A stretch of DNA of 64,000 nt from an uncultured Actinomycetes bacterium. Its GTDB lineage: Bacteria; Actinomycetota; UBA4738; HRBIN12. Below, piece by piece: positions 30,911 through 46,024 of the stretch (position 1 is its first letter; the number at the start of each line of letters is the position of its first letter). Under the pieces are notes generated by a model that worked only from the letters and a program-made list of their open reading frames with translations, did not search any database and was not told the origin of the DNA. The position numbers and the translations under genes are program-made. The DNA lies in contig CAZXFA010000010.1 in NCBI GenBank assembly GCA_964640085.1, forward strand, positions 9,805 through 73,804. Direction: 5' to 3'.

Positions 30911-33535
30911 ATGCGCTTGAATCCGGAGTCCGTCGCCAGGTCCAGCAGCCGGCGCCCGTGGGTGACGATCGGTGTCTGGTTCGTGCTCATCGTGACCGGG
31001 GGCTTCGCCTCTGCTCGGTTCCTGGGCGATGCCCTGACCCAGGACATCGAGTTCACCAACCGGCCCGAGTCCGTGCACGCCCAGGAGATCCTCGACGAGG
31101 CGTTCCCCGGCTCCGACCAGGGGAACGACACCGTGTTCTTCCTCGTCGGCTCGGAACAGGTCCCGGCGAGCGATCCCTCCTTCCAGGAGCGGGTGACCGA
31201 GCTCGAGGCCGACCTCGTCGCTCTGGGGGACGAGGTGGTCGCCGGCCCTCCGACCTCCTACCTGGACGTGCAGGCGCAGGCCGAGTCCCTGTTCACCCCG
31301 GACGGGCGCGGGGCACTCCTGGCCCTGCAGATGAACGGTGACGCCGCGGCCACGCTCGCGGCCGCCGGTGAGGCCGCCGCGGCCGCCGCCCCCGAGGGCT
31401 TCTCCGCGTCGGCGCTCACGCTCCCGGAGTACGCGCAGATCGTGGGCGGCGGCTCGGGGGAGGCTCCGGCCGACCCGCCCGAGGGCTTCGTACTGGTCAG
31501 CAGCCCGAGCCTCGGCGTCACGGCCCGGTCCTTCCAGGAGGCGGTGGCCACCGTGCAGGATGCGGTCGTGCAGGCCGTGGGCCCGTCGCTGAACGGTCCG
31601 CCCGCGAGCGGCTACGACCTCCAGGGCCGGGCGAGCGGCCTCGTGTCGCAGGACGGCATGTACGCGCTGATCCCCGTCCCGCTCGCCGACAGCACCGACA
31701 CGATCGTCGAGCAGATCCGCGAGGTGGCGAACGAGCGGACGGGCGAGGGATTCACGGTGCAGGTGGCCGGGAACCCCACGCTGTTCGCCGACTTCACCAA
31801 GCTCGCGGAGGAGGACCTACGCCGCGGCGAGGGTATCGGGCTGGGGATCGCGCTGATCGTCCTGATCGTCGTCTTCGCCTCGGTGGTCGCGGCCGTCGTG
31901 CCCATCGTGCTGGCGATCTTCGCGATCGCGGTGGCGCTCGGACTCGTGACACTGATCGGTCAGCTCGTCGACTTCAACCTGTTCGTCACGAACATGGTCT
32001 CGATGATCGGGCTCGCGGTGGGGATCGACTACTCGTTGTTCATCGTGTCCCGGTACCGGGAGGAGCGGAAGAAGGGCCGGGTGAAGCTCGAGGCGATCGG
32101 TGCGGCCGGCGCCACCGCCAACCGGGCCGTCTTCTTCAGCGGGATGACAGTGGTCCTCGCCCTGCTCGGCATGTTCATCATCCCGACCACGATCTTCCGC
32201 AGCCTGGCCAGCGGCGCGATCCTGGTCACCCTCGTTTCGATCGCGGCTTCGATGACGTTGCTGCCGGCGCTGCTGAGCGTCCTCGGCGACCGCATCAACT
32301 GGCCCCGACTCTCCCGCCGGGCGCGCCTGGACAGCGGGCACGACCCGAAGGGCGGTATCTGGGACCGGCTGGCGCGCGGCGTCATGGCGCGCCCGGTCGC
32401 GTTCCTCACGGTGGGCGTGCTGGTGCTCGGCGGACTGGCCTCCTTCTACTTCCAGATGGAGCGCGGGACGTCGCAGAACGTCAGCCAGCTCCCGGACGAG
32501 TTCGAGTCCAAGGAAGCGTTCCTCACGCTCCAGCGCGAGTTCGCCGGCGGCACCTCCGACCCGGTCAAGGTCGTCGTCCAGGGCGAGGTGAACGACCCGG
32601 AGGTCCAGACGGCCGTCTCGGATCTCCAGGGCGCGATCGCCGGTTACCCCGAGTTCGCTGAGACCACCCAGGTCTCGCAGTCGATCGACGGGCAGACCCT
32701 GCTCCTCGAGGCCTACTTCCAGGGTGACCCGTCCGCCGACGCCGCGTTCCAGGCGATCCGAGACCTCCGGGCCGAGCTGGTCCCGACCGCCTTCGCCGGG
32801 ATCGGCGGAGCCGAGGTGCTGGTCGGCGGGAACACGGCGTTCTTCACCGACTTCCTGTCCGTCGCGGACCAGTACCAGTGGGTCGTGCTGGCGTTCGTGC
32901 TCGGGCTGTCCTTCATGCTGCTGACGGTGGTGTTCCGGTCGATCGTGGTGCCGATCAAGGCGATCCTCCTGAACCTGCTCTCGGTCGGCGCGGCCTACGG
33001 GGCGGTCACGCTCGTGTTCCAGCGGGGCGTGGGCATCTCGATCTTCAACGACATCCTCCAGTTCCGGTTCGAGCGGGTGGACTCGATCGAGGCCTGGCTG
33101 CCGTTGTTCCTGTTCTCGGTCCTGTTCGGGCTCTCGATGGACTACCACCTCTTCCTGCTCACGCGGATCCGCGAGGAGTACGACAAGACGGGGGACAACA
33201 CGGAGGCGGTTGCCTACGGTCTGCGGACGACGGCCGGGATCATCACCGGGGCGGCGCTGATCATGGTCGCGGTGTTCACCGCCTTCGCCTCCGGCCGGAT
33301 CGGCGCCTTCCAGCAGATGGGCTTCGGTCTGGCCGTGGCGGTGTTCATGGACGCCACCATCGTGCGTTCGATCCTGGTGCCGGCGTCGATGCGGCTGCTG
33401 GGCGACCTGAACTGGTACCTCCCGCGGTGGCTGCGGTGGCTGCCCGAGCTCAACGTCGAGGGCGCCGCGCCGGGACGCGAGCCGGCGGTGCCCGCGCCGG
33501 AGCCCGAGCCCGTCCTGGTGCGTGACGACGGCTGA
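30911..33535 (+). CDS. MMPL-family (RND superfamily) membrane transporter
   Basis: 874 aa with two 6-TM bundles and large periplasmic loops. SD GGGGAGTAGGGGAG. Confidence 0.85.
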   Translation: MRLNPESVARSSSRRPWVTIGVWFVLIVTGGFASARFLGDALTQDIEFTNRPESVHAQEILDEAFPGSDQGNDTVFFLVGSEQVPASDPSFQERVTELEADLVALGDEVVAGPPTSYLDVQAQAESLFTPDGRGALLALQMNGDAAATLAAAGEAAAAAAPEGFSASALTLPEYAQIVGGGSGEAPADPPEGFVLVSSPSLGVTARSFQEAVATVQDAVVQAVGPSLNGPPASGYDLQGRASGLVSQDGMYALIPVPLADSTDTIVEQIREVANERTGEGFTVQVAGNPTLFADFTKLAEEDLRRGEGIGLGIALIVLIVVFASVVAAVVPIVLAIFAIAVALGLVTLIGQLVDFNLFVTNMVSMIGLAVGIDYSLFIVSRYREERKKGRVKLEAIGAAGATANRAVFFSGMTVVLALLGMFIIPTTIFRSLASGAILVTLVSIAASMTLLPALLSVLGDRINWPRLSRRARLDSGHDPKGGIWDRLARGVMARPVAFLTVGVLVLGGLASFYFQMERGTSQNVSQLPDEFESKEAFLTLQREFAGGTSDPVKVVVQGEVNDPEVQTAVSDLQGAIAGYPEFAETTQVSQSIDGQTLLLEAYFQGDPSADAAFQAIRDLRAELVPTAFAGIGGAEVLVGGNTAFFTDFLSVADQYQWVVLAFVLGLSFMLLTVVFRSIVVPIKAILLNLLSVGAAYGAVTLVFQRGVGISIFNDILQFRFERVDSIEAWLPLFLFSVLFGLSMDYHLFLLTRIREEYDKTGDNTEAVAYGLRTTAGIITGAALIMVAVFTAFASGRIGAFQQMGFGLAVAVFMDATIVRSILVPASMRLLGDLNWYLPRWLRWLPELNVEGAAPGREPAVPAPEPEPVLVRDDG

Positions 33536-33562
33536 GGCGGCGATCGCCTGCGGCCCAAACAG

Positions 33563-33590
33563 AACGGGGGCTCCGTGTGGAGCCCCCGTT
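33563..33590 (+). terminator. Intrinsic terminator hairpin AACGGGGGCTCC-gtgt-GGAGCCCCCGTT followed by CGGTTCCTT
   Basis: Perfect 12-bp stem 28 bp after the MMPL stop. Confidence 0.55.
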
Positions 33591-33616
33591 CGGTTCCTTG
33601 ATAGGGTCCGACCGCG

Positions 33617-34552
33617 ATGGAGGAGGGACTCGACCTCGAGCTCCAGCAGGAGCGCGATGCCCTGCGACAGGCGCTCGGCAGGGTCGGGGTGTGGAGCTTC
33701 GCGCTGGAGTCGATGACCGCCGCCGAGGAGCGCGAGGTGGCGGCCGAGATCGAGTCGCTCGGCTACGGGGCGATCTGGTTCCCGGAAGCCGTCGAGAGCC
33801 GTGAGGTCTTCAGCCACGCGGGATGGCTCCTGTCCTCGACTGGGCGGGTGGTGATCGCGAGTGGGATCGCGAACATCTGGGCCCGCGACCCGGTCGCGAT
33901 GGCCAGCGGGTGGCGCATGCTGACCGATGCCTTCCCGCGGAGGTTCCTGCTCGGGATCGGCGTGAGCCATGCCGGCTCCGTCGCCAGGCGAGGGGGTACC
34001 TACGAGCGCCCGGTGGCCACGATGCGCGCGTACCTGGACGCCATGGACCGCGCGGCTTCCTCGGCTCCCGAGCCGGAGACCGCGCCCTGGTCGGTCCTGG
34101 CCGCGCTGGGCCCGCGGATGCTCGGGCTGGCGGCGGACCGAACGCTGGGCGCGCATCCCTACTTCGTGCCGGTGGAGCACACGGCGTTCGCGCGCAAGCG
34201 GCTGGGCCCCGGCCCGGTGCTCGCCGTGGAGCAAACCGTGGTGCTCGAGAGCGATCAGGTCCGGGCCCGGCGATCGGCCCGAGCGTTCGCGCGGGACTAC
34301 CTCGACACCCCGAACTACGCGAACAACCTCAGGCGGATGGGGTGGACCGGCCCCGACATCGCCGGCGAGGGGAGCGATGCGCTGATCGACGCCGTGGTCG
34401 CGTGGGGGGACGTAGATCGGATCGCGGTCCGCATACGGCAGCATCTCGAGGCGGGGGCCGACCACGTCTGCGTGCAGGTCGTTTCGGAGGACGAGACCGA
34501 CCCGTGCCTCGAGCAGCTCCGCGCCCTCGCGTCGGCGGTCCTGGAGCTCTAA
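33617..34552 (+). CDS. LLM-class F420-dependent oxidoreductase (luciferase-like monooxygenase family)
   Basis: 311 aa with a luciferase-like TIM barrel (RVGVWSFALESM..., LGYGAIWFPEA, ...LLGIGVSHAG). Confidence 0.7.
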   Translation: MEEGLDLELQQERDALRQALGRVGVWSFALESMTAAEEREVAAEIESLGYGAIWFPEAVESREVFSHAGWLLSSTGRVVIASGIANIWARDPVAMASGWRMLTDAFPRRFLLGIGVSHAGSVARRGGTYERPVATMRAYLDAMDRAASSAPEPETAPWSVLAALGPRMLGLAADRTLGAHPYFVPVEHTAFARKRLGPGPVLAVEQTVVLESDQVRARRSARAFARDYLDTPNYANNLRRMGWTGPDIAGEGSDALIDAVVAWGDVDRIAVRIRQHLEAGADHVCVQVVSEDETDPCLEQLRALASAVLEL

Positions 34553-35247
34553 TCCCGCGAGAGGCGCTCCACGACCCGTTGGCTCCGGAGCTCGCGCAGG
34601 ACGTCCCGCGCGACCCACCTCGCCGAGCGATCCTCGACCGCGCCGATCTGCTCGGCCGTCGCGATCGCTCGCTGATGAAGGTGTGGACCCCGCTTGCCGA
34701 TCTGGCGGAGCGCCCAGCTGGTTGCCTTCCTCACCGGGTTCCGTTCGTCGGTCGCAGCCGCGGCGATCGACGGGAGCAGGCGCTCGAACCGCTCGTCGGG
34801 TTCGTTCTTCGCGTGCACGGCAAGGCAGGCCATCAACGCCAGACCGGCCCGGCGCACGAACGGCTCCGACCGTGCGCTCCACTCGATCGCCTTGTCGAAC
34901 GCGGACGGCGTGCGGTCGAACAGGTTCGCGCAGACCTGGTCGCATAGGTCCCAGGAATCGAAGTCCGCGACCCAGGCCTCCATCTGCGCCTCCGTGACCT
35001 GCTCGGGGTCCTCGACGATGCTCGCGAGGATCCGCGCCTCGTGGATCCCGGTGACCCAGAGGCTCTCGGCGAGCCCGTGGTCGCGGCGGTACGGGCGCGC
35101 GAGCTGCCGGAGCTCGGTCACGGTGACGCCGAGGGCGTCGTCCGTCCGGATCCCGTACCGGGCCATCCCCTCCAGACGCGTCGGGTCGGCGGCGGCCCGC
35201 AGCCGTTCCAGCACCTCGCTGAGGTGCGGCTCGACGTCGCTCGCCAT
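34549..35247 (-). CDS. DNA alkylation repair protein (AlkD/AlkC-like HEAT-repeat DNA glycosylase family)
   Basis: 232 aa, helical repeats (WVTGIHEARILASIV...WDLCDQVCANLF...RKATSWALRQIGKRG). Confidence 0.7.
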   Translation of the reverse strand: MASDVEPHLSEVLERLRAAADPTRLEGMARYGIRTDDALGVTVTELRQLARPYRRDHGLAESLWVTGIHEARILASIVEDPEQVTEAQMEAWVADFDSWDLCDQVCANLFDRTPSAFDKAIEWSARSEPFVRRAGLALMACLAVHAKNEPDERFERLLPSIAAAATDERNPVRKATSWALRQIGKRGPHLHQRAIATAEQIGAVEDRSARWVARDVLRELRSQRVVERLSRD

Positions 35248-35369
35248 GCTCGCATCGTCGCACGCGTCGACGTCTGCGAATATCGCGGCGTGGTCCGCAC
35301 CGCCGGTCCGCTGCTCGTAGCCTGGTTCGCCATCGCGACCTCCATGGGTGGTGTCGCAGGCGTCGCGCG

Positions 35370-36720
35370 ATGGGCGTCCCCGAGCCCGGCAGGAGCTACT
35401 GGCTCCCGGAGGCGCTGGATCGCGAGAGAGGCGATCCCTTCCCGCCGCTCATCGGTCGATGGATCCCCGACGCGTGCATCGTGGGCGGTGGGTTCCGCCG
35501 GGCTGTGGACCGCGGTCGAGCTAACCGAACGGGAGCCGTCGCCCCGGATCGCCCTGCTCGAGGCCGATACCTGCGGCGGGGACGCGAGTGGGCGCAACGG
35601 CGGGTTCTTCTCGGCCTCGTCGTGGGACTGCCCGGGCTCTGCGGCCTGTACGGCGAGGAGGCCGGTGTGCGGTACGCGTTGGCCCTCGCCGGCGAGGTGT
35701 GGGCGGCGGGCGAGTGGTGCCGGCGACACGGGGTCGATGCCTGGTTCCACGGGGGCGGCGTCCCGGCCCTCGGCGTTCGGATGATGGCCCTGACGGCCGA
35801 TGAGGTCCGGGGGTACGCGGATCCGCCGGGGGCGATCCGCGGCGCGTTCTCCACGGACAGCGCCACGGTCCAGCCGGCCCGGCTCGCCCGTGGCCTCCGC
35901 CGCGTTGCCCTCGAGCGCGGGGTACGGATCTTCGAGGACACGAGGGTGCGTCGGGTCGAGAGCGGGCGACGACCTGTCGTCCGGACCGAGGGCGGTGCGA
36001 TTCGAGCCGAGGGCGTGGTCCTCACGCTCGGGATGGGCGAACGGTTGGCCGGGCTTCCGCCGGAGCTTCGGCACGATCGCCGACTTCATGGTGGTGACCG
36101 AGCCCATCCCCGACCGGCTCGGGGACATCGGGTGGAGGACCCACGTCGGGATCGTGGACGGGCGGAAGCTTCTCTACTACCTGCGCCGGACCGAGGACGA
36201 CCGTGTCGCCATCGGAGAGGGGACGACGGGGGTCGTCTTCGGCGCGCGGGCCTCGGGGAACGGGGCGACCCGGGATCACCGCGCGGCCGAGGTGGCCGCC
36301 TCCGGGCTGGCCTGGTCGTCCGCCCGGCTCCGGGGTGTGCGGTTCACCCCCGCCTGGGGCGGGCCGATCGACCACAACGGTGTCGTTCACGCCCTTTTCG
36401 TGGGCGCCCCGACCAGGCGTGTTCGTGGGTCTGGGTTCTCGGGCCACGGTCTCACACGGACCAAGCTGGGAGACGGATCCTCGCCTCCCTCGCGCTCGGC
36501 ACCATGGATCGGTGGAGCTCGATGCCGGCGGTTGGGCCGGAGGTGGCGAAGGGCCCGCCGGAGCCACTGCGCTGGCCGCTCGTGCGTACCGCCGTCTGGG
36601 CCCTGGAGTCGGGGGCGGGAGTCGCAGCGGCGCCGACGGGCCGTGGTGCGATCGGTGGTCGGGGGCGCGCCCATCGCCTACCGGGACCGCCTGGTGCGGA
36701 CCGGTGCGGGCGTCCGCTAG
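35370..36720 (+). pseudogene. FAD-dependent oxidoreductase (DadA/glycine-oxidase-like) disrupted by at least three frameshifts
   Basis: The GxGxxG dinucleotide motif is split (CIVGGGF then +1 shift to AGLWTAVELTEREP), so the protein continues across frames 35370, 35041 and 35800. The first shift is consistent with one extra C in TTCCGCC. The total span (about 1350 nt) matches a roughly 450-aa enzyme. Confidence 0.5.
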
Positions 36721-36998: not shown

Positions 36999-37259
36999 CC
37001 GGTCATCCTACGAGCGTCCGCGCGAACCGTGCGATCCGGTTCGCGACCGCTACCGGCCGCTGGGGCGGGACGTCGTGGATCCCCTCGATGCACTCGAAGC
37101 GCACCGCCCCGCCGATCGCCCGCACGCGGGAGGCGGCGCGCTCCTTCTCTTCCCGGAACCCGGCCGAGTCGGGAACCGTGTCCCGCGAACGCGGGGCCGG
37201 CACGAGCGTCGGCACCCGACCCGCTCGAGGAGCTGGGGCGTGTCCTGCTCCCACAGGGC

Positions 37260-37520
37260 GGGCAGGATGCGAAGGTGGTTCGCGCGGGACAGGCGGGGAT
37301 CGATGGTTCCATGCCGATCCACGCGCCCCAACGAGTTGACATACTCCCACCCGTTGGCGGGTCAGTGGACTCCATCGCGCATCGCGACGTCATGCTGTTG
37401 GTACCACTGGAGCTTGGAGTTCCAGCCATTCGTCGAATACTCAACGAGCGCATGAACGTGGATCGGCGAATCTCAGCCCTCGGCTTCCTCACGCCTGCAG
37501 CGGTGCCAGCCGGCGGAGGT
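37260..37520 (+). mobile_element. remnant of an IS3-family transposase (OrfB/rve C-terminal end), frameshifted and lacking the rest of the element
   Basis: Two adjacent frames together read ...SCCWYHWSLEFQPFVEY / LGVPAIRRILNERMNVDRRISALGFLTPAAV. This resembles the IS3 OrfB C-terminus (...AWCYRRGVKLHFIRPGKP...ARRVIEEWRIDYNTHRPHSALGYLTPAEF). No intact transposase or terminal inverted repeats were identified. Confidence 0.45.
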
Positions 37521-37580
37521 CACGGCCGCGGCGCTGGGTGGGGTCCGTGCAGGCGTGACGGCTAGTATCGACCCTAAGAC

Positions 37581-38309
37581 ATGAGCGGAGCGATGGACAC
37601 CGTCATCGCGCCCGCCGGTCGGTCCGGCGGGCGCACGGACCGCTGGCTCGTGGCCGCGGTGCTCGCAGCGTTCGTCACGCTGGCCTTGCTTGCGGCGTTC
37701 GCCCAGAGCTTCCTCCTGCGGGTGGACGAACCAGTGCAGCGATGGGTCATCTCCGTTCGCCGCGGGTGGCTCAACGACCTCATGATCGGGGTGTCCTGGC
37801 TCGGAACTCGGTACGTGATCGGCGGACTGCTGGCCATCGTGACGATATGGTCCCTCGTCACCGGGCGGTGCCGCAGAGCCGTACTGGTGCTCCTCGTCGC
37901 CTTCGCTCTGAACCCTCTCCTCGAATGGTCGTTGAAGGCGCTCGTCGACCGCCCGCGACCCGGCCTCCTGCTTCTCGGGCGGGGTCGAGGCCCCTCCTTC
38001 CCGAGTGGTCACGTGCTCGCCGCCTCCGGCTTCTACGCGATGCTGCCCGCCCTGATCCCTTGGGACGTGGATCGCTGGCGCAGCTTGGGCGTTGCGATCG
38101 TGGGCGCCGGTGTCGTGTTGGCCGTGGCCTTCTCACGCGTCTACATGGGGGTGCATTGGGCCAGCGACGTGGTCGGGGGGCTCCTGGTGGGCACCATCGC
38201 GGTCGTCGCCACGTACCGCGCTCTCGACGGTCACCGCATCGCGGCCTGCCGATGCCGCGCCGGCTGGCCCGCCCATCATCTCCCGGTGCCCTCCAGCCGC
38301 TGGCGATAG
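37581..38309 (+). CDS. PAP2-family phosphatase (phosphatidic acid phosphatase type 2 / undecaprenyl-diphosphatase-like)
   Basis: PAP2 motifs (KALVDRPRP, PSGH, SRVYMGVHWASDV) and multiple TM helices. Confidence 0.8.
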   Translation: MSGAMDTVIAPAGRSGGRTDRWLVAAVLAAFVTLALLAAFAQSFLLRVDEPVQRWVISVRRGWLNDLMIGVSWLGTRYVIGGLLAIVTIWSLVTGRCRRAVLVLLVAFALNPLLEWSLKALVDRPRPGLLLLGRGRGPSFPSGHVLAASGFYAMLPALIPWDVDRWRSLGVAIVGAGVVLAVAFSRVYMGVHWASDVVGGLLVGTIAVVATYRALDGHRIAACRCRAGWPAHHLPVPSSRWR

Positions 38310-38644
38310 GCGGCCACCGCCCGCTCGGCCAACCGAGAGGGCGACTCGTTCGCCTGCTCCGACTCCCGCTGCAGCCACTCGAAGAGATCCTGCCGCAGTC
38401 GGACGTGCCCGCTCCTGTCCGCTTGCCGGCGCGACAGCAGGACGTACAGGAGGACCACCAGCCCGATGATGAACAGCACGGCGACCAGGATCGCCCGGGC
38501 GAACGGATCGCCGTGCCAGATCATGACCGACTGCGTGGGGCTGCCCGATGGGACCCGGAAGGCGCGCCACAGGTAGATGAAGATGTACGCGCCCGTGTAG
38601 AGGAGGAACGCCGCAAGGACGACCAAGGACAGCGTGCGCTTCAT
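38276..38644 (-). CDS. small membrane protein B (122 aa, 2 TM helices plus a charged C-terminal helix), hypothetical; last gene of the PEP-enzyme operon
   Basis: MKRTLSLVVLAAFLLYTGAYIFIYLW ... ILVAVLFIIGLVVLLYVLL. Its ATG overlaps the stop of the upstream membrane protein (ATGA at 38641-38644). The 3' end overlaps the convergent PAP2 gene by 34 nt. Confidence 0.5.
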   Translation of the reverse strand: MKRTLSLVVLAAFLLYTGAYIFIYLWRAFRVPSGSPTQSVMIWHGDPFARAILVAVLFIIGLVVLLYVLLSRRQADRSGHVRLRQDLFEWLQRESEQANESPSRLAERAVAAYRQRLEGTGR

Positions 38645-39204
38645 CGGACGCTCCTATCTTCGAGCCACGGGACGAGAGCCATGGCGCGCTCTCGCGCATC
38701 CTCGGGAGGCGGCATGAGACGACCCAGCCATGTCGAACGCGCCAGCCGGAGCACGGGGTCAGGGGCGCGTTCGTGGAGGACCGCGAAGACGAGCGACAGC
38801 CCGCCCACCGCGGCAAGGGGCACATCGGCCGCAACCGCAAGGGCGATCACCCACGGGTTCTCGTGCAGCGTGGCCCCCGCGTCGGCGAAGACACGGAACC
38901 CGGCGCTCGTTACGAGCACGCCGAGGATGGCAGCCAGGGCCCCGAGGCACGCGTAGGTCCACCGCGATCGCAGGCGGCGTGGCGGCGCCTCACGTTCGGG
39001 AACGACATACCCGGCGGCGCGTGCCGCTCCCGCGACGACGTAGTGGATGGCTTCGGCCACCGCGATCCGGCGACGCACACCTCGGTTGGGAGCGGCCCGT
39101 TTGATCCCGTCACTCACCAGGATGGCCGCGGAAAGGAGGATCCCAGCTCCCATCAGTCCGGGCACGAAGACCGCCTGGGTCACCGAACCCTCGCCCCCGT
39201 TCAC
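38641..39204 (-). CDS. small membrane protein A (about 187 aa, 3-4 TM helices), hypothetical; translationally coupled to the PEP-utilising enzyme gene
   Basis: GTG 39204 overlaps the TGA of the upstream gene (GTGA at 39201-39204). GTG 39183 (SD GAGGG) is the alternative start. The track ORF extends to 39516 inside the upstream gene. Confidence 0.5.
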   Translation of the reverse strand: MNGGEGSVTQAVFVPGLMGAGILLSAAILVSDGIKRAAPNRGVRRRIAVAEAIHYVVAGAARAAGYVVPEREAPPRRLRSRWTYACLGALAAILGVLVTSAGFRVFADAGATLHENPWVIALAVAADVPLAAVGGLSLVFAVLHERAPDPVLRLARSTWLGRLMPPPEDARERAMALVPWLEDRSVR

Positions 39205-41909
39205 GCCGCCTCCTCCGTTCGGATCACGACGCCCGCCACGCCATCCACCTCGACGTCCTCGCCGGTCGCCAGGCTGTGGGTCGCACCCCTCACGTTCACC
39301 ACCGCAGGCACACCGAACTCGCGGGCCACGATCGCGGCGTGGGAGAGTGGCCCTCCCTCCTCCAGCACGATGCCTCCGGCAACGAGGAACAACGGCGTCC
39401 ACGAGGGGTCGGTGCTCCGCGCCACGAGGATCTCTCCCGGCATCAACGTCGACGCATCCGAGAGACCTCGGAGGATCCGCGCCCTGCCGCGCGCTCGACC
39501 GGGGCTCGCCGCCCAACCCCTGAGCTCCTCACCGTCGAGGGGGGGCACCTCCTTGGCCCCCGGGAAGCCCTCGAACGATTCCGGGAGCGGCGATCCCTCC
39601 CGAGCCCTGGCGAGCGCGCTGCGGCGACGATCCAGGTCCTCGGCCGACACCGGCTCGGCCCCCAGCAGCATCCCCTCCAGCTCCGCGTCGGAGAGGAGGA
39701 GGACGTCCTCAGCGTCGATCAACTGGCCGGATGCCTGGAGACGGCGCGCACCCTCCAGGATCAACCCTCGTTCCTCCCCTCCGAGCACGAGCAGCGCGGC
39801 CTTGGCCTTCTCACGGAGCATGAGGAACCGGGAGGCATCGGCCGCGAGCCTGCGCACCATCCGCCCTCTGACGTCGACGATCTGACCCGTCAGCAGGCGG
39901 GTGGCGCGCCACCTCCAGGATCGCCGGAGCTCAGCCCGGAGCTCAGCCAGCGCCGATCCCCGCGCCGCCTTGCTCGTCGCCACTCGGGCATCGGGCGATA
40001 CCTCGTGGCCACCCTCCTCGCACCGGGCGATGTGCGCCAGCCGCTCCAACACCATCGAACGATCCTCGTCCCAGGCGGTCCCGCCGTACAGGGACATGGA
40101 GCCGAAGTGGCGAGCGACCCGGTCGATCGCCGACAGGAGCAGCTCTCCCTCCTCCCCCATCGCCCGGATCCGCTCCTCGACTCCCTCGAAGGGGTGGAGC
40201 CGGATGCAGGTGCACGCGTCCCGGCCCTGGATGCCTCGTACGTACAGGTCCCACAGGGTGGTCGTGGTGTCGATCACGCCGCTGGCAGAGAGTTGCGGGG
40301 ACGTGGTGATCCGTTGCGCCCAGGTGGCGGCGCGATCCCTGCCCACCCAGCGCTCCAGGGCCATCTCCAGCGCTCGATAGGCGGCCGCAGCTCCGGCGGC
40401 CGCCGCGACCTCAGCCGCGTAGCCTCGGCAGGCGAGGTCGCGGATCCTGGCCCGGTAGGCGAGCAGCCGGTGCGCGGGCAGGGCTAGATCGACCTGGAGC
40501 GCGATCACCCCGTGGACCGCCTCCGCGAACAGATCCACTTCGTCCTCGACTCGGCGTCTCAAGCGCAGCGCTCGCAGTCCGGCCAGGCCCCGAGCCACCT
40601 TGCCTCGGCGCGGGGCCGGGACCGCGTCTCCGGAAAGGGACCGGCCTAGATACTGCCTCTCGACCTCGGCGTGGGACCCGCCCGGCATCAAGGCCGCGGC
40701 CTCCCGCAGCGCCGAGAGGTTCAGGGCCGCCCGACCGCGGAACCGACCGATCGCCAGGAGGCCTCGAGGAGCGGCGGACGGCGAGATGCCCAGCTCCCAG
40801 AACAAACGACGGAACGCCTCATCGAGCATCGGTGCGTTGATCGTCCACAGGAGCGGGGGTAGGACCTCGGGAAGCATCTCCTGCACGCCGATGGGTGTGT
40901 AGGTGGCCCCCGGCACCGGTTCGGTGTCGAACTCGTCGGCGCTCGGCCGAGATGCCCCCCGGACGGTGATGGGCCGGGCCTGAAGCACCCAGAGTACGCC
41001 ATCGGCGAAGGCCCATTCGATGTCCTGAGGCGTCCCCATGCGTCGCTCGATCTGGAGTCCCACCCGCATCAGGGTCTCGAGGAACGGGGGCGACCCGGCG
41101 GGCTCGGGATGGTTGACGGCGAGCGTCGCCCGGTCCACCCGGTAGTCGTCGGGCGTCACACGACCGGCGACCAGCGATTCCCCCAACCCCCGCACCACCT
41201 CCACCCGCGCGGTCCGGGCATCAGCGCCCGGATCCCTGGTGAAGAGCACGCCGGACATCTCCGCCGGCACCATGGCCTGGACAATCACCCCCATGCTCAG
41301 ACCCACCTCGGGCACGCGTTCCCGCCTGCGATAGGCCCGGACCGAGGGAGCCCACAGGGATGCCCAGCACTTCCGGACCGACTCGAGCACGTCGTCGTCC
41401 GTATCGAGGTCGAGGAAGCTCCGGTACTGGCCCGCGAACGAGGCCGTGCTCGTATCCTCGGCGGTGGCCGAAGAGCGGACCGCGACAGGGCCCGACGCGA
41501 GCAGCCTGCGAGCCGCGTTCCTCACGGCGACCTCGACGCCGCTGGGTACTGTCGCATCCAGGAAGGCGCGGTCAACGCGTGCGGTCTCCTCTTCAGAGTC
41601 CTCAGCCCTTGGGAGCGCGGCTTCGGCCAGCTCACGCAGGAGGGGCGCCAGGCCCCCGGCCTCGACGGACTCCTCATACGCATCCGTCGTGACGGCGAAG
41701 GCGGCGGGGACGGCGAACCCCTCAGCGACCAACCGGTCGAGCGCTGCCGCCTTCCCTCCGACCGCGCCCACCTCCGCTCCGGAGCCGTCGAGAGCGCGGA
41801 TCGGGGAGCCCGTCCACGCCGCGGGAGGCGCCGGCGTCGTCCCGTCGGTCCCTCGTTCGGGCTCACGAGCCAGCTGGATCGGCGCGGAGCTCGTCGTCGG
41901 CGGTGTCAC
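39201..41909 (-). CDS. PEP-utilising enzyme of the phosphoenolpyruvate synthase-like / rifampicin phosphotransferase (Rph) family (N-terminal PPDK_N ATP-grasp, C-terminal phosphohistidine swivel domain)
   Basis: GGKAAALDRLVAEGFAVPAAFAVTTDAY (PPDK_N) and GGPLSHAAIVAREFGVPAVVNV (PEP-utilisers His motif), 902 aa. GTG start at 41909 with SD GGGGGG. Confidence 0.8.
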   Translation of the reverse strand: MTPPTTSSAPIQLAREPERGTDGTTPAPPAAWTGSPIRALDGSGAEVGAVGGKAAALDRLVAEGFAVPAAFAVTTDAYEESVEAGGLAPLLRELAEAALPRAEDSEEETARVDRAFLDATVPSGVEVAVRNAARRLLASGPVAVRSSATAEDTSTASFAGQYRSFLDLDTDDDVLESVRKCWASLWAPSVRAYRRRERVPEVGLSMGVIVQAMVPAEMSGVLFTRDPGADARTARVEVVRGLGESLVAGRVTPDDYRVDRATLAVNHPEPAGSPPFLETLMRVGLQIERRMGTPQDIEWAFADGVLWVLQARPITVRGASRPSADEFDTEPVPGATYTPIGVQEMLPEVLPPLLWTINAPMLDEAFRRLFWELGISPSAAPRGLLAIGRFRGRAALNLSALREAAALMPGGSHAEVERQYLGRSLSGDAVPAPRRGKVARGLAGLRALRLRRRVEDEVDLFAEAVHGVIALQVDLALPAHRLLAYRARIRDLACRGYAAEVAAAAGAAAAYRALEMALERWVGRDRAATWAQRITTSPQLSASGVIDTTTTLWDLYVRGIQGRDACTCIRLHPFEGVEERIRAMGEEGELLLSAIDRVARHFGSMSLYGGTAWDEDRSMVLERLAHIARCEEGGHEVSPDARVATSKAARGSALAELRAELRRSWRWRATRLLTGQIVDVRGRMVRRLAADASRFLMLREKAKAALLVLGGEERGLILEGARRLQASGQLIDAEDVLLLSDAELEGMLLGAEPVSAEDLDRRRSALARAREGSPLPESFEGFPGAKEVPPLDGEELRGWAASPGRARGRARILRGLSDASTLMPGEILVARSTDPSWTPLFLVAGGIVLEEGGPLSHAAIVAREFGVPAVVNVRGATHSLATGEDVEVDGVAGVVIRTEEAA

Positions 41910-42157
41910 ACGATCCCCCCTTCGCTTCTGCCCGCGCCGCCGAGCGCGCCGCGCGATCGCACGCGCTCGATGGAACGAGGGAACGTGCCTTCACTCGGTC
42001 CAGCGTGGGCCCAGCAGAACGGACCTTCGTTGTAGACGGAGAGCCGTATCGCGCAACCCTGCCAGGCACATGTCCGACCCCTCGGGTAGGTGCGGTTGGG
42101 CTCGGGCAGCTCCTGCGTGATGACCCCTCGGAGCGCTATCACCGACTCACGCCCCAT
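41906..42157 (-). CDS. small Cys-rich protein (83 aa, C-x4-C ... C-x2-H zinc-ribbon-like), translationally coupled to the PEP-utilising enzyme gene
   Basis: MGRESVIALRGVITQELPEPNRTYPRGRTCAWQGCAIRLSVYNEGPFCWAH... Good SD (GGGGGAGAAGG). Its TGA overlaps the GTG of the downstream gene (GTGTGA). Confidence 0.5.
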   Translation of the reverse strand: MGRESVIALRGVITQELPEPNRTYPRGRTCAWQGCAIRLSVYNEGPFCWAHAGPSEGTFPRSIERVRSRGALGGAGRSEGGIV

Positions 42158-42398
42158 CGCCTTCTCCCCCTTGCCTGGACCGGCTCTCTTCCCGCCGGCG
42201 GGCGCGGGGCGCCCTGCGGCGTGGCGGCAGGCGGATGGGCCGACCCGGATGACCGGGCGCCATTGCCGCTCCCACAGCCCGCAGGACCCCGTGGCCGAGC
42301 TCGCCGCCGGCGGCTGCGATGCCTGCTCGGACCTCCCGGTGTTGCCGCGGTTGTTGCCGCTCCGTCGCCTGCATGTTCCCGTCTTCGCCGGATCCGCC

Positions 42399-44699
42399 CT
42401 AGGCGGCCGGTTGGGGGCTCACCTCCTTCTCCAGCTCGACCCTGGGGAGCAACCTTGCCAGCCAACCGGGAAGCCACCAGTTCCACTCCCCGAGGAGTCG
42501 CATCGTTGCTGGCACGAGGATGATCCGGACGATGGTCGCGTCGATCAGGACGGCCGCCGCCAGTGCGAACCCCAGCTCCTTCATCAGGAGGATGGAGGAG
42601 AGGAGGAAGGCGCCGAAGACCACGACCATGATCGCGGCAGCTCCGGTGATGACCCTCGCGGTGCGCTCGAGGCCGATGGCCACGGCCTGCTCGTTCGAGT
42701 GGCCCCGATCATGGAGCTCGCGGACGCGGCTCAGAAGGAAGACCTCGTAGTCCATGGAGAGCCCGAAGAGGACGGCGAACAGGAGCACGGGAGTGACCCA
42801 GTTCACCGTCCCCGTCGACGTGAAGTCGAACGCCGCTTCCCCGAGGCCCTTCTGGAACACGATGACGAGCAGCCCGTACGCTGCGAGGACCGACAGCATG
42901 TTCATGATCACGGCCTTCAAGGGGATCAGGATCGATCGGAACAGGATCATGAGCATGAGGAACGTGGCCGCGAGGATGATGGCGATGACGATCGGGAATC
43001 GGCGGTAGAGGGCGTCGCTGGCGTCCGCTTCGATGGCCGGCGTGCCACCCACGAGCACCTCCGCCTTCCGAAGCTCGGGCACCGTGGGGATGATCTCGCT
43101 CCGCACCGCGCGCACGGCTTCCCAAGCTTCGGGGGACGATGGGTCGATCGCAAGGTGACCCATGATCACTGCGGTGTCCGCGCCTCGATCCAGGTTCACG
43201 AAGTTGCCCAACGAGGCGGCCAACTCGGGGGGCAGGGCAGCGAAGCCGTCAGCGTAGAGAGCCTGGTAGTCAGCGGGGCCCAGATCGGGCGAGAGGGCCG
43301 TCATGCTCATCGCCCCTTCGAAGCGCCGGTCGGCGGCGATCGCCCGGGTGAGGCGATCCACGCCGGCGACGATCTCCGGGGCGCCGACGTCGCTCTCGGC
43401 CCGCACCACGATCTCCACCGGCGAGAGCATCCCCGCCCCGAACTCCTCGCTGAGGAGCTCGAACCCCTGCCGACTCTGGAAGCCCTCTCCGAGCTGCCCC
43501 ACGCCGATCGTTCCCGTCTGGAGCCCGACGGCCGGCCAGGCGAGGGCACCCAGGATCAGCAAGCCTCCCACCGCGTACCGGACCGGACGGCCCATGACGT
43601 GCATGGCCCAGCGGTGCCACAATCCGCCTTCCCCAGATCGATCCAGGAGCCGCGTGAGGGTACGCGGCGCTTCGATCCGGTCGCCAAGGATGACGATGGC
43701 CGCGGGGAGCATCGTGAGGCCGGCGACCACGGCCAACAGCACCACGAGGATGCCACCGATGCCCATGGACATGACGGTCGGCTCGGCCGTAGCGAGGAGG
43801 GCCGAGAGGCCGATCACGACCGCGAAACCCGAGAACGCGACGGCCTTCCCGGCATGGGCGACCATCTCCACCGCGGCGGTTTCGACGTCACGCCCGACCT
43901 TGCGCTCCGCACGGAACCTGGTCAGCATGAACAGGGCGTAGTCGATCCCGACGCCCATCCCGAGCATGACAGCGAAGGTTTCGAGGAAGACGGACAGACC
44001 CCGCCATTCGCCGACGAGGACGGCCAACGCCAGCGCGATGACGATGGCGAGGATCGCCAGCGCGAGCGGCAGGGTCGCCGCCACGAGGGCTCCGAACACC
44101 GCGATCAGCACGACGAGCGCCACCGGGAGCCCCAACGTCTCCGCCCGCGCGATGCTCTCCTGGCTGGCCGATGAGATGTCCGCGTGCACCGCCTCGATCC
44201 CGGTGACCCTGGCCGTGAGCCATGCGGGGGTCGGAGCGGCCTCGACGGCCTCGAGGATGTCCTCGGAGGCCAGCATGCCGTCGGCATGGTTGGTCGCCCG
44301 CAGCTCCAGCAACGCGTAGGTGCCTCCCCCGTCGGCACTCACCAACGCAGGGTTGCCGGACGAGAAGAAGCTGACGACACCCGAAACGTGGCCCGTGTCC
44401 TCGATCGCTCGGATGAGGCCTTCCGCCGCTCGGCGATACCCGGGATCCTGGACCGGTACCCCCTCGCTCGAGAGCACGAGGAGTTGCTGGAAGGCGCTCC
44501 GCGAAGAGAACTCCGCTGCGATGATGTCGGCCGCCCGCTGAGACTCACCGGTGTTCCCCGATTCGATCCCGCGGTCGAAGACCCTCTGGATCCCGGGGGC
44601 GAAGGTGGCCCCCACCACCAGGAAGGCCACCCAGATCAGGACCACCTTCCACCTGTGGCGAACCACGATCTTGCCGATGCCCCTGAACGCCCCGTACAT
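42399..44699 (-). CDS. MMPL-family (RND superfamily) membrane transporter, second copy
   Basis: 766 aa, MMPL topology. Downstream of, and co-oriented with, a TetR gene. Confidence 0.85.
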   Translation of the reverse strand: MYGAFRGIGKIVVRHRWKVVLIWVAFLVVGATFAPGIQRVFDRGIESGNTGESQRAADIIAAEFSSRSAFQQLLVLSSEGVPVQDPGYRRAAEGLIRAIEDTGHVSGVVSFFSSGNPALVSADGGGTYALLELRATNHADGMLASEDILEAVEAAPTPAWLTARVTGIEAVHADISSASQESIARAETLGLPVALVVLIAVFGALVAATLPLALAILAIVIALALAVLVGEWRGLSVFLETFAVMLGMGVGIDYALFMLTRFRAERKVGRDVETAAVEMVAHAGKAVAFSGFAVVIGLSALLATAEPTVMSMGIGGILVVLLAVVAGLTMLPAAIVILGDRIEAPRTLTRLLDRSGEGGLWHRWAMHVMGRPVRYAVGGLLILGALAWPAVGLQTGTIGVGQLGEGFQSRQGFELLSEEFGAGMLSPVEIVVRAESDVGAPEIVAGVDRLTRAIAADRRFEGAMSMTALSPDLGPADYQALYADGFAALPPELAASLGNFVNLDRGADTAVIMGHLAIDPSSPEAWEAVRAVRSEIIPTVPELRKAEVLVGGTPAIEADASDALYRRFPIVIAIILAATFLMLMILFRSILIPLKAVIMNMLSVLAAYGLLVIVFQKGLGEAAFDFTSTGTVNWVTPVLLFAVLFGLSMDYEVFLLSRVRELHDRGHSNEQAVAIGLERTARVITGAAAIMVVVFGAFLLSSILLMKELGFALAAAVLIDATIVRIILVPATMRLLGEWNWWLPGWLARLLPRVELEKEVSPQPAA

Positions 44700-44792
44700 G
44701 TGTGCACCTCCTGCTTCCGCAGCTGGTGACTGAGCCCCCAGTCAATCCCGGACCCAAACACAAGAAGCTGGCGGGCCGCCCGGCCCCGCCCG

Positions 44793-45404
44793 CTACCCGG
44801 CCTCACCCCCCTGGCGGGGCAGAAGGCCCCGGAGCTCGAGGTCCAGGAGGTCCTCGGCCAGCGTGCGGTGGCCGGTGCTCCGGCCCTCCGCGACGATCGT
44901 GCGGTTGGCCGTGTGCAAGATGAGTCCTACGAGGGCCCGGGCCACGGTCTCCGTCTTCACTGGGCGGAAGTGCTCCCGCGCAGCCCCTTCCACGAGGTAC
45001 CCGGCCGCGACGTCCTCGATGTCGCGGATCAACAGATCCAGGATCGCCTCCGACCGCTCGTCCACCGATCCAGCCTTGTTGAAGAGGAGGTTCGCGACCT
45101 CCCGGTTGTCCGCGCAGATCCGGAAGATCTCCGCGCACACGTCCGCGACCTCGGTTCCGGGGCCCCCGCCCACAGGGCCGGACGCCCAACGCAGCCCCGC
45201 GGCCGCATCGCGGATCCTCTCGGCGAAGTGCTCCAGCAAGCGGTGGAAGACCTCCTGCTTGCTGGAGAAGTACAGGTAGAAGGTGCCTTGAGCCACGCCC
45301 GCCTCGGCGGTGATGTCGCTCACGCGAGCGGCGTGGAACCCGCGATCATGGAACACCTTGGCCGAGGCCCGGAGCATGTGGCCGGTACTCGTCTTGGTCG
45401 GCAT
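44793..45404 (-). CDS. TetR-family transcriptional regulator
   Basis: HTH (AARVSDITAEAGVAQGTFYLYFSSKQEVF). ATG 45404 with SD GGGAG. The track ORF extends to 45593. Confidence 0.8.
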   Translation of the reverse strand: MPTKTSTGHMLRASAKVFHDRGFHAARVSDITAEAGVAQGTFYLYFSSKQEVFHRLLEHFAERIRDAAAGLRWASGPVGGGPGTEVADVCAEIFRICADNREVANLLFNKAGSVDERSEAILDLLIRDIEDVAAGYLVEGAAREHFRPVKTETVARALVGLILHTANRTIVAEGRSTGHRTLAEDLLDLELRGLLPRQGGEAG

Positions 45405-45421
45405 CGGTGCTCCCGGGGTGA

Positions 45422-45439
45422 TGACTGATGAATCAGTCA
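45422..45439. promoter_or_regulatory. Perfect palindrome TGACTGAT-GA-ATCAGTCA (TetR operator candidate) in an AT-rich patch
   Basis: Seen directly, 18 bp upstream of the TetR start codon and in the divergent region toward the ABM-domain gene. Confidence 0.45.
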
Positions 45440-45733
45440 GTACTTTACTCTCTCCCCTCCTCGCCGTCAACCGCCACTTTCCCGAGGTGTTCGCTCCGCC
45501 CCGCCACTCGCCAGTGGAACTTGGCGTGCTGCTCACGCCGATCGGGGGTCCCGCCCTCGGTGAAGGACCGTTCGGCCTGCTCCCCGTCCCCACCGACGCG
45601 TCGTCCTGGCGGCGAGCCCCTGGGGCGACCTCCGATTAGGTATCGAGACACACCGCCGAGCAGAACCGAACCGATCGACCACCTCCGTGACCCGGCGTAT
45701 CCTCCGACGGACATCGGAACGGAGGGAGGCGGC

Positions 45734-46024
45734 GTGTTCGGGACCCTGGGGCGTATGAAGGCCAAGCCGGGCAAACTCGAGGAGCTCACGACCCACCTCA
45801 ACGACCCGCAGGCGGCCGCGCACCGCGGCTATGGGGGCTCGTACCTGCTGGTGGCCGAGGAGGGTGACGAGGTCGTGGTGGCCGTCATGTTCGAGGACAA
45901 GGAGTCGTACTTCGAGATGGTCCACGACCCGAAGACCGACGAGAACTACCAGCGGCTGCTCACGCTGGTCGAGGGCGAGCCGACCTGGACCGACGGGGAG
46001 TGGATCGCCGGACCCACCGCCTGA
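45734..46024 (+). CDS. antibiotic-biosynthesis-monooxygenase (ABM/Dabb) domain protein
   Basis: 96 aa from GTG 45734 (SD GGAGGGAGG), with a ferredoxin-like ABM pattern. Divergent from the TetR-MMPL operon. Confidence 0.55.
   Translation: MFGTLGRMKAKPGKLEELTTHLNDPQAAAHRGYGGSYLLVAEEGDEVVVAVMFEDKESYFEMVHDPKTDENYQRLLTLVEGEPTWTDGEWIAGPTA

Follow-up and report, generated by a model that had tools for sequence, protein, structure and literature searches.

In the window, a 64,000-nt stretch of contig CAZXFA010000010.1 from an uncultured actinomycete, an Rph-type small-molecule dikinase, hereafter called ENZ, is encoded together with two small membrane proteins, memA and memB (Table 1). The conserved unit is these three genes, ENZ-memA-memB. 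With a little better than even confidence, the module is read as a membrane-docked dikinase acting on a membrane-resident hydroxyl compound, from which a partner phosphatase would remove the phosphate. No description of the module was found in the literature; its gene content and neighbours suggest a kinase/phosphatase system, not described before, at the membrane of Acidimicrobiia-like Actinobacteria.

Table 1 Features of the module and its surroundings (positions in the window)
Feature	Position	Strand	Remarks
PAP2 phosphatase, integral membrane, 242 aa	37581..38309	+	convergent; 3' end overlaps memB 3' end by 34 nt
memB, 122 aa, two TM helices and C-terminal two-helix tail	38276..38644	-	no known family
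memA, 187-aa membrane protein, three hydrophobic segments	38641..39204	-	no known family
ENZ, Rph-type small-molecule dikinase, 902 aa	39201..41909	-	Pfam PPDK_N E=5.5e-67, PEP-utilizers E=5.9e-25
ENZ phosphohistidine swivel domain, residues ~795-897	39219..39527	-	PF00391 at residues 824-893
ENZ all-helical central (acceptor-binding) domain, residues ~330-790	39540..40922	-	includes invariant R699-E700-x-x-K703
ENZ ATP-grasp (nucleotide-binding) domain, residues ~35-320	40950..41807	-	similar to the ATP-grasp domains of Rph, PpsA and PPDK
zf83, 83-aa CCCH zinc-ribbon-like ORF	41906..42157	-	lineage-specific, outside conserved module
MMPL transporter	42399..44699	-	PF03176 E=2e-93; 5' of zf83, same strand, 241-nt gap
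TetR-family regulator	44793..45593	-	PF00440 E=1.5e-15; 5' of MMPL gene; context

The original prediction of ATP-grasp and phosphohistidine swivel domains in the 902-aa enzyme was borne out by Pfam (PPDK_N at residues 49-265, and PEP-utilizers), and its Rph-like character by Foldseek, in which both fold and domain order matched the Rph of Listeria monocytogenes (PDB 5FBS/5HV1). The match is full-length, the two proteins having in common the order of ATP-grasp domain, helical acceptor domain and C-terminal histidine swivel; for the AF2 model of ENZ (pLDDT 79.5, all-helical over residues 350-770) the best PDB match was 5hv1 (E=2e-36, ~930 columns). The GGPLSH sequence of ENZ aligns with GGLMTH of Rph, which places the catalytic His857 (codon 39339-39341) on the Rph histidine of the shared GGxxxH motif. 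His857, R699, E700 and K703 were invariant in 37 ENZ homologues, as were 50 of the 286 columns of the ATP-grasp domain. The R-E-x-x-K motif, also common to both enzymes, corresponds to R666/E667/K670 of the Listeria enzyme by an offset of 33, which was extrapolated and not aligned directly; mutagenesis of the latter enzyme showed that these residues and the histidine drive the second phosphotransfer (PMC4844700). The dikinase chemistry is presumably common to both.

The identity with Rph is, however, only ~20 %, and the acceptor domain of ENZ is unrecognizable by sequence. At profile positions 290-680 (residues ~373-717) no PDB chain matched by sequence, and nothing aligned with the rifampin-binding blocks of Rph, either with phmmer or with the family profile, although the central domain aligns to the Rph fold in Foldseek. 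The invariant Glu344 aligns with Q337 of Rph. Conservation of the central domain is nearly equal to that of the ATP-grasp domain (0.60 vs 0.64), which suggests one conserved acceptor. ENZ scored below every NCBIfam equivalog cut-off, including those of Rph (298.8 bits for NF041857, cut-off 999; 206.9 bits for NF000283, cut-off 1700). It has the ATP-grasp domain, the Rph-like acceptor domain, the swivel histidine and the catalytic residues of the small-molecule dikinase superfamily, the distant clades of which are predicted to be phosphotransferases still, but to act on another substrate (Stogios et al. 2016; PMC4844700).

The label PpsA-like, given to the enzyme earlier, is misleading. Homologous ATP-grasp and swivel domains and a His-swivel dikinase mechanism are shared with PEP synthase and PPDK, but ENZ has no PEP/pyruvate TIM-barrel domain, its swivel domain is C-terminal and not central, and the PpsA and PPDK structures align to it over the ATP-grasp or swivel parts only. 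The score with the PEP synthase model TIGR01418 was 286 bits (cut-off 739.75), and identity with either enzyme was rejected. The best partial NCBIfam matches were RedH and PigC; these prodiginine ligases and HapC have the three-domain layout and lipophilic substrates but catalyse condensation, not formation of a stable phosphate ester. Identity as a prodiginine ligase was also rejected (PigC 312 bits, cut-off 1300; RedH 327 bits, cut-off 1350), and there are no prodiginine biosynthetic genes near ENZ.

The ATP-grasp domain of HpeI (9goj) matches ENZ by both fold and sequence. HpeHI, CreHI and the phenylphosphate synthase PpsAB are multi-protein small-molecule dikinases with Rph-like acceptor-plus-swivel and ATP-grasp components, but these two parts are split and both soluble (PMC12167813), whereas ENZ is a single chain. 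Their genes are found in aromatic catabolic operons, whereas ENZ has no linked catabolic genes and its putative extra subunits are membrane proteins. Known members of the family phosphorylate hydrophobic hydroxyl compounds, including rifampin, phenol, 4-cresol and hydroxyphenylethanones (PMC4844700, PMC12167813).

In loci sampled from memB, memA adjoined memB in 60 of 60 and ENZ was upstream of the pair in 47 of 49. All loci sampled via enzyme homologues of 46-66 % identity contained ENZ, memA and memB with overlapping or abutting junctions, the identity of ENZ in related module loci going down to 46 %. Full-length ENZ-memA fusions were found in two data sources (P0289, 1051 aa, JGI; P0045, 1047 aa, Logan), and memA is fused to PAP2 in one protein (P0261). 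The enzyme is thus, as had been proposed, not a stand-alone Rph. Rph works alone, as a soluble enzyme of resistance; ENZ is tied by gene linkage to two small membrane proteins, with one of which it occurs naturally fused, and to a phosphatase.

The four minus-strand ORFs (83, 902, 187 and 122 aa) start with ATG, GTG, GTG and ATG, respectively, each with a purine-rich Shine-Dalgarno-like run 5-9 nt 5' of the start, and each junction is a 4-nt start/stop overlap. The zf83/enzyme junction reads ATC GTG TGA (overlap GTGA), the enzyme/memA junction GCG GCG TGA (overlap GTGA) and the memA/memB junction CGA TGA (overlap ATGA). In high-GC operons overlaps of this length are frequent and unremarkable alone; what is above chance is the conservation of ENZ, memA and memB, with tight junctions, over dozens of loci. 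Stoichiometric co-expression, deduced from the overlaps, may follow from this layout. An alternative in-frame GTG is present in memA at 39183 (codon 8), but the start at 39204 is favoured, since in most homologous loci memA likewise overlaps the stop of the enzyme gene by 4 nt. Residues 1-33 of ENZ are not conserved and are poorly modelled by AF2; there is no other canonical start 5' of the conserved core.

The small proteins were described earlier as uncharacterized, and indeed none of zf83, memA and memB has a Pfam match. For memA and memB no NCBIfam or PADLOC family was found either, only sub-threshold matches driven by TM segments. There were 69 memA representatives among 1.84 billion proteins, and the memA motifs are kept across loci. 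None of the 97 homologue clusters of memB is named or has a Pfam domain, and its AF2 model (pLDDT 70, helices 2-28, 47-77, 85-98 and 102-119) had no Foldseek match with E<1. Sixteen memB columns are invariant, including Y16, Y24, R27, H44, D46 and R50. The N- and C-termini of memA would both be cytoplasmic, because the enzyme-memA and memA-PAP2 fusions require so, and a K/R-rich loop at residues 36-79 agrees with this. To reconcile the fusions with the charge distribution, the first hydrophobic segment of memA would have to be re-entrant.

The module neighbours in the window are MMPL, TetR and PAP2 genes and oxidoreductases. The convergent PAP2 gene, which the original prediction had missed, as it had the near-universal membrane-phosphatase neighbour elsewhere, encodes a polytopic protein with several hydrophobic segments (PF01569, E=3e-19, 69 bits vs cut-off 27), in the translation of which the motifs KALVDRPRP, PSGH and SRVYMGVHWASD correspond to the signatures KxxxxxxRP, PSGH and SRxxxxxHxxxD. 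It shares 58 % identity with its PAP2 counterpart at the equivalent position in locus L006 and is a probable functional partner of the module. A PAP2 gene lies within 400 nt downstream of the module in 10 of 21 lineages. Among the 14 lineages with both flanks sampled, a membrane-anchored phosphatase adjoins the module in 13 (PAP2 in 7, PhoD in 4 and DSP-PTP in 2), all three types carrying membrane anchors. In the L011/L084 lineage group no phosphatase gene adjoins the module, and divergent ABC exporter genes are all that does; the L054/L057 group has MMPL and a gene for a thioredoxin-like protein as its sole neighbours. Exporters of the MMPL or ABC type frequently lie near the module, MMPL also adjoining it in the L007, L025 and L057 lineages, and the MMPL transporter of the window is a possible accessory.

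From the architecture and catalytic residues of ENZ, the linkage and fusion of the genes and the neighbouring phosphatases, all of them observed, we infer a complex, its orientation at the membrane, its class of substrate and the direction of a cycle. The functional unit would be ENZ with its dedicated memA and memB, joined in most lineages by a membrane-anchored phosphatase, here the convergent PAP2. By analogy with the family, ATP would bind at the ATP-grasp domain, His857 would take the beta-phosphate with release of AMP and Pi, and the swivel domain would pass the phosphate on to a hydroxyl of the acceptor, which R699, E700 and K703 would position within the helical central domain. The fusions and topology suggest that memA and memB tether ENZ to the membrane on its cytoplasmic side; with ENZ docked there, the acceptor is likely to be a membrane-resident amphiphile. 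An endogenous lipid alcohol, e.g. a polyprenol or a diacylglycerol-type lipid, is the preferred guess. To our knowledge, no member of the Rph-type dikinase family is known to use a lipid as substrate. By comparison with other PAP2 and PhoD proteins, the active sites of these phosphatases are assumed to face the cell exterior, and the partner phosphatase would strip the phosphate again, closing a kinase/phosphatase cycle located at the membrane or spanning it, with MMPL or ABC exporters as optional accessories. A comparable pair is the DgkA-type undecaprenol/diacylglycerol kinase with PAP2 (PgpB, BcrC), in which a kinase on the cytoplasmic side uses ATP and is matched by an integral PAP2 lipid-phosphate phosphatase (PMC7413402). 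DgkA and DgkB have no sequence or fold relationship to ENZ, and the likeness would be one of functional analogy only.

The TetR-MMPL context in the window equally suits xenobiotic handling. The tethered dikinase could phosphorylate a lipophilic toxin (rifamycin-like, phenolic or flavonoid) entering via the membrane, the charged product being expelled by MMPL or ABC transporters. This is rather unlikely, although the closest solved structure is Rph, hydrophobic xenobiotics are substrates of characterized relatives (PMC4844700, PMC12167813), TetR and MMPL genes are directly upstream here and several other loci have MMPL/ABC exporters at their flanks. The Rph equivalog score is far below its cut-off and the rifampin-binding blocks are undetectable by sequence, while the conserved acceptor domain in a variable genomic context suggests a housekeeping-type substrate. 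The near-universal phosphatase neighbour, which is moreover fused to memA in one case, argues against simple antibiotic inactivation, since a phosphatase beside the kinase would undo it.

In the original prediction the operon comprised four translationally coupled genes. The four ORFs and their overlaps were confirmed, but at 46-66 % enzyme identity ENZ-memA-memB is kept and zf83 is absent, and the conserved unit is three genes. The 83-aa protein had been called Cys4/His-type; its putative ligands are CCCH (C30, C35, C48 and H51). It has no PDB match, and its occurrence is confined to ~90 % identical relatives, with four Logan contigs having it at the equivalent position. An obligatory role of zf83 in a four-subunit complex is improbable. 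The 4-nt overlap and the Shine-Dalgarno-like run before the enzyme start are consistent with it, and in comparison with ~92 % identical contigs zf83 has no indels (three in the 241-nt spacer upstream) and keeps its CCCH residues, which lends weak support to its being a coding sequence. However, a dN/dS of 0.61 on 19 differences is unconvincing, a single homologue cluster was found in 5.8 billion proteins, and the related motif in L006 is in a 64-aa ORF unlinked to the module. A general partnership of zf83 with the enzyme is largely refuted, and zf83 is probably a recent, lineage-specific addition.

Phosphate might instead pass from phospho-His857 to memA or memB, the receiving residue lying in one of their cytoplasmic parts, in a signalling relay like that of PTS Enzyme I which the phosphatase resets. 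The swivel domain of ENZ is homologous to PTS Enzyme I, the cytoplasmic tail of memB has invariant residues (R84, D86, W90, R108 and Y113) and some lineages have DSP-PTP-type phosphatases. Such a relay is nevertheless quite improbable: the Rph-type acceptor domain with R-E-x-x-K serves small molecules in all members that have been characterized, neither PAP2 nor PhoD is a protein phosphatase and both should have their catalytic parts outside the cell, and output domains such as a response regulator are missing from the module.

It is very improbable that memA and memB are merely co-transcribed with the enzyme and unrelated to its function, as the retention of memA, memB and PAP2 after enzyme loss (L023, L024 and L032) or rearrangement (L048) in rare loci might indicate, given the near-perfect co-occurrence, the conserved translational coupling and the in-frame enzyme-memA fusions from two independent data sources. 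In view of the three rare loci in which the enzyme is lost or truncated and memA and memB are kept, the membrane protein pair may have some independent role.

The coding regions of zf83 (a CCCH zinc-ribbon-like ORF), ENZ (an Rph-type small-molecule dikinase) and the unnamed membrane proteins memA and memB overlap by 4 nt at all three junctions (GTGA, GTGA and ATGA, read from the sequence), as originally predicted, and a Shine-Dalgarno-like purine-rich run precedes the start of each of the four ORFs. A second in-frame GTG is possible for memA at 39183, but 39204 was preferred as the start since the 4-nt overlap with the stop codon of the enzyme was seen again in most homologous loci. No Rfam family was found in 37000-46000 at E≤1 and no promoter-like sites were found in the module region, where the single terminator-like site equalled the chance expectation and was not convincing; the 241-nt spacer between zf83 and the MMPL gene contained only trivial GC palindromes.

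Coordinates of the four ORFs and of neighbouring genes in the window
Feature	Position	Strand	Remarks
Second MMPL transporter	30911-33535	+	874 aa; few kb past PAP2
Luciferase-like monooxygenase	33617-34552	+	few kb past PAP2
AlkD-type DNA alkylation repair gene	34549-35247	-	few kb past PAP2
PAP2 phosphatase, integral membrane	37581-38309	+	downstream, convergent; 3' end overlaps memB 3' end by 34 nt
memB	38276-38644	-	122 aa
memA	38641-39204	-	187 aa
ENZ	39201-41909	-	902 aa
zf83	41906-42157	-	83 aa
MMPL transporter	42399-44699	-	upstream of the four-ORF run, same strand
TetR regulator	44793-45593	-	upstream, same strand

Pfam places PPDK_N at residues 49-265 of ENZ and the PEP-utilizers mobile domain at residues 824-893; the PEP/pyruvate TIM-barrel domain is absent. 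NCBIfam gave partial matches only, every one far under its curated cut-off: RedH (327 bits, cut-off 1350 bits), PigC (312 bits, cut-off 1300 bits), Rph (299 bits, cut-off 999 bits) and PEP synthase TIGR01418 (286 bits, cut-off 740 bits). ENZ is not a PEP synthase, nor, by the curated criteria, Rph, PigC or RedH. Sequence alignment to solved structures covered the ATP-grasp and swivel domains only, and approximately residues 373-717 had no sequence match to solved structures even with a 37-sequence family profile. This central region is all-helical in the AF2 model (pLDDT 79.5), which was aligned by Foldseek with Listeria Rph over the whole chain (~930 columns, 20 % identity, E=2e-36), whereas its matches to PpsA/PPDK were confined to the shared domains. 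Of the proposed PEP synthase- or Rph-like enzyme, the ATP-grasp domain, the swivel domain and the Rph fold thus stand, and the PEP synthase part falls with the missing TIM barrel and the low TIGR01418 score.

His857 (motif GGPLSH) is invariant across the family, as is R699-E700-x-x-K703, which is found at the same 33-residue offset from R666/E667/K670 of Rph-Lm, residues assigned to the second phosphotransfer by mutagenesis (PMC4844700). The mean top-residue frequency is 0.60 in the central domain, compared with 0.64 in the ATP-grasp domain. We conclude that ENZ belongs to the small-molecule dikinase superfamily, is catalytically competent and, on an Rph-type architecture, carries an acceptor site that is both conserved and distinct. 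Genes of the ENZ type should not be annotated as PEP synthase or rifampicin resistance. In Rph-Lm, rifampin and its phosphate are contacted by Q336/Q337, whose aligned counterparts in ENZ are Q343/E344, of which E344 is family-invariant; this replacement of Gln by an acidic residue beside the phosphate site may mark the different acceptor.

The genomic context was fetched for eight ENZ homologues with 46-66 % identity, and in all loci returned ENZ was followed by a gene of 174-206 aa and then one of 123-133 aa, with overlapping or abutting junctions. Alignment identified these small genes as memA and memB, and zf83 was found in none of the loci, so that the four-gene block of the original prediction is conserved as ENZ-memA-memB, without its first member. 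In the reverse test, 68 loci were recovered from metagenomes with the memB alignment as query and then analysed with custom HMMs: memA adjoins memB in 60/60 loci with at least 650 nt upstream, and ENZ lies upstream in 47 of the 49 with at least 1 kb. The source names of the homologues were uncultured Actinomycetota, mostly Acidimicrobiia; a genome-collection scan with ENZ gave, among the matches listed, only an irrelevant Clostridium swivel-domain match.

Loci departing from this layout look like decay products. In L023 (6079-6456; the same in L024 and L032), a 126-aa ORF, apparently left over from a deletion, has a PhoD N-terminus (profile positions 9-57) running into the final ~50 residues of the ENZ swivel domain; memA, memB and the downstream PAP2 are all intact there, showing that the membrane pair and phosphatase can survive without the kinase. 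The locus is rearranged in L048. In the related loci L040 (2012-3673) and L041 (2953-4797), the enzyme has no ATP-grasp domain at all and is interrupted by an internal gap, matching the family profile only at approximately positions 283-512 and 575/609-864, while the upstream PhoD and the downstream memA and memB are intact; either the gene is decaying, or this is a variant that depends on ATP-grasp function from a second protein, like HpeHI. In L085 (6762-9387) the enzyme is split into ORFs of 292 and 561 aa, most likely by noisy long-read assembly and not as a natural two-component form, since PDH-E1 and ribonucleotide reductase are also fragmented on that contig.

The zf83 ORF, with a CCCH motif (C30, C35, C48, H51), had one homologue cluster, restricted to contigs with ~92 % nucleotide identity that keep the order MMPL-zf83-ENZ. 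Its dN/dS was 0.61, on 19 differences. It is probably a real gene, but lineage-specific. The best candidates for its family, Zf_WRKY19 in Pfam (E=0.24-7) and APOBEC in PDB (E=1.4), were both rejected. A 64-aa ORF of L006 (2097-2291, minus strand), 4 kb from the module and in opposite orientation, has the motif GR.C...GC...LS.YN....CW.HA.PS in common with zf83, hinting that a family of small CCCH proteins has gone unannotated in these genomes.

A check of the small proteins against Pfam had been proposed: memA, memB and zf83 had no above-threshold family in Pfam, and memA and memB had none in NCBIfam or PADLOC, although both are strongly conserved. A role in anti-phage defence was rejected, PADLOC matching 0/4 proteins. 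For memB, 97 homologue clusters of 120-130 aa were found, with 16 invariant columns including Y16, Y24, R27, H44, D46, R50, R84, D86 and W90; memA had only 69 representatives among 1.84 billion proteins. Matches of memB to AmaP, LPG_synthase_TM and actinobacterial Holin-X, and of memA to BrkB, were below cut-off, lay over TM helices and were treated as compositional. In the AF2 model the TM helices of memB, two in number, precede a pair of C-terminal helices, but a ribbon-helix-helix tail was rejected, as none of 35 members scanned matched an RHH family in Pfam and Foldseek gave nothing below E=1. From hydropathy and charge, the C-terminal tail of memB is predicted to be cytoplasmic, as are the tail of memA and its loop at residues 36-79.

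Two in-frame, full-length ENZ-memA fusions with linkers of ~20 residues were found, P0289 (1051 aa, JGI) and P0045 (1047 aa, Logan); the P0289 cluster additionally includes two incomplete copies of its fusion from other contigs. In a third fusion, P0261, a weakly AhpC/TSA-like stretch separates memA from the PAP2 domain that comes after it. The fusions argue that the enzyme, memA and PAP2 associate physically. Jointly they demand that the N- and C-termini of memA both be cytoplasmic, and the first hydrophobic segment of memA (VFVPxLMGxGIL.S) would consequently be re-entrant and not spanning.

Phosphatases were counted per lineage because metagenome loci are not fully independent. Loci were clustered at ≥85 % memB identity, giving 14 lineages with both flanks sampled, of which seven had a convergent PAP2 directly downstream, as in the window, four a translationally coupled PhoD upstream, two a DSP-PTP-type phosphatase directly downstream, and one no neighbouring phosphatase. 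Membrane anchoring is common to all three types, PAP2 being an integral membrane protein, PhoD having an N-terminal polytopic DUF7670 region and a SRRFAR Tat-like motif, and PTP an N-terminal TM segment. The PAP2 of the window has 58 % identity with that at the same position in L006, a divergence similar to that of ENZ itself. This exchange of three unrelated membrane-bound phosphatases implies that the function kept is phosphomonoester removal at the membrane. MMPL or ABC exporters flank the module in several lineages, the phosphatase-free ones among them.

The best supported model, in view of the phosphatase replacement, the dedicated membrane subunits and the fusions, is that ENZ would dock at the cytoplasmic face of the membrane and phosphorylate a hydroxyl compound resident in it, with membrane orientation and substrate class as we infer them. 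The partner phosphatase would reverse the phosphorylation, probably on the outside of the membrane, provided that PAP2 and PhoD have the orientation of characterised family members; this orientation is established for PgpB-type PAP2. A xenobiotic acceptor, with plain antibiotic inactivation, was ranked below an endogenous lipid-type acceptor, since the phosphatase would give the drug back. A protein phosphorelay is less consistent with the acceptor-domain chemistry and the fusions, as is the absence of any complex between the enzyme and the membrane proteins. Within the docked-dikinase model, a tentative and rather doubtful proposal is a new membrane lipid kinase, in which the dikinase, docked by its two new membrane subunits, phosphorylates an endogenous lipid alcohol (e.g. 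polyprenol carrier lipid or diacylglycerol) at the cytoplasmic face, an outward-facing PAP2, PhoD or PTP closes a trans-membrane cycle, and DgkA/DgkB-type kinases are replaced in Acidimicrobiia-like Actinobacteria. Should the acceptor prove to be a carrier or membrane lipid, the module would represent a new way of recycling envelope lipids in an actinobacterial lineage that has been little studied.

Rph-type dikinases form a large, mostly unexplored family, and to our knowledge the characterised members are all soluble and act on free small molecules. The nearest known systems are Rph, with the fold and presumably the mechanism of ENZ, PigC and RedH, and the two-component phenolic dikinases HpeHI, CreHI and PpsAB (PMC12167813); all of them lack membrane subunits and a phosphatase partner. 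Literature searches turned up no account of a dikinase that has membrane subunits or is partnered by PAP2. The enzyme family is thus known, and what is new is the obligate membrane partners, from two orphan families, and the phosphatase coupling: one Rph-type clade is tied to two dedicated membrane proteins of tiny unnamed families and to interchangeable membrane phosphatases. The module gives memA and memB their first functional context and offers a concrete, testable way into a new class of substrate within the Rph-type family.

Genes of thiol-disulfide oxidoreductase type recur around the module: a TM-anchored AhpC/TSA protein directly upstream (L057:1076-1714), the weakly AhpC/TSA-like middle of P0261 (residues 189-280), a DsbA gene (L011:5197-5865) and a Redoxin gene (L012:4565-5047). 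These may be coincidental or a further accessory. In the window, MMPL genes lie on either side of the module, and more distant neighbours also include DAO-type oxidoreductase, aldehyde dehydrogenase and ABC transporter genes. A 1148-aa ORF (31817-35263, minus strand), antisense to the MMPL, luciferase-like and AlkD-like genes and with an R/G/D/E/P-rich low-complexity translation, was rejected as a typical high-GC artefact. The match to DAO (FAD-dependent oxidoreductase) at 35041-36720 (plus strand) covers only profile positions 102-259 within a 731-aa ORF, and ORFs in other frames (35041-35784 and 35800-36720) resemble the missing parts of the gene, suggesting a frameshift or sequence error.
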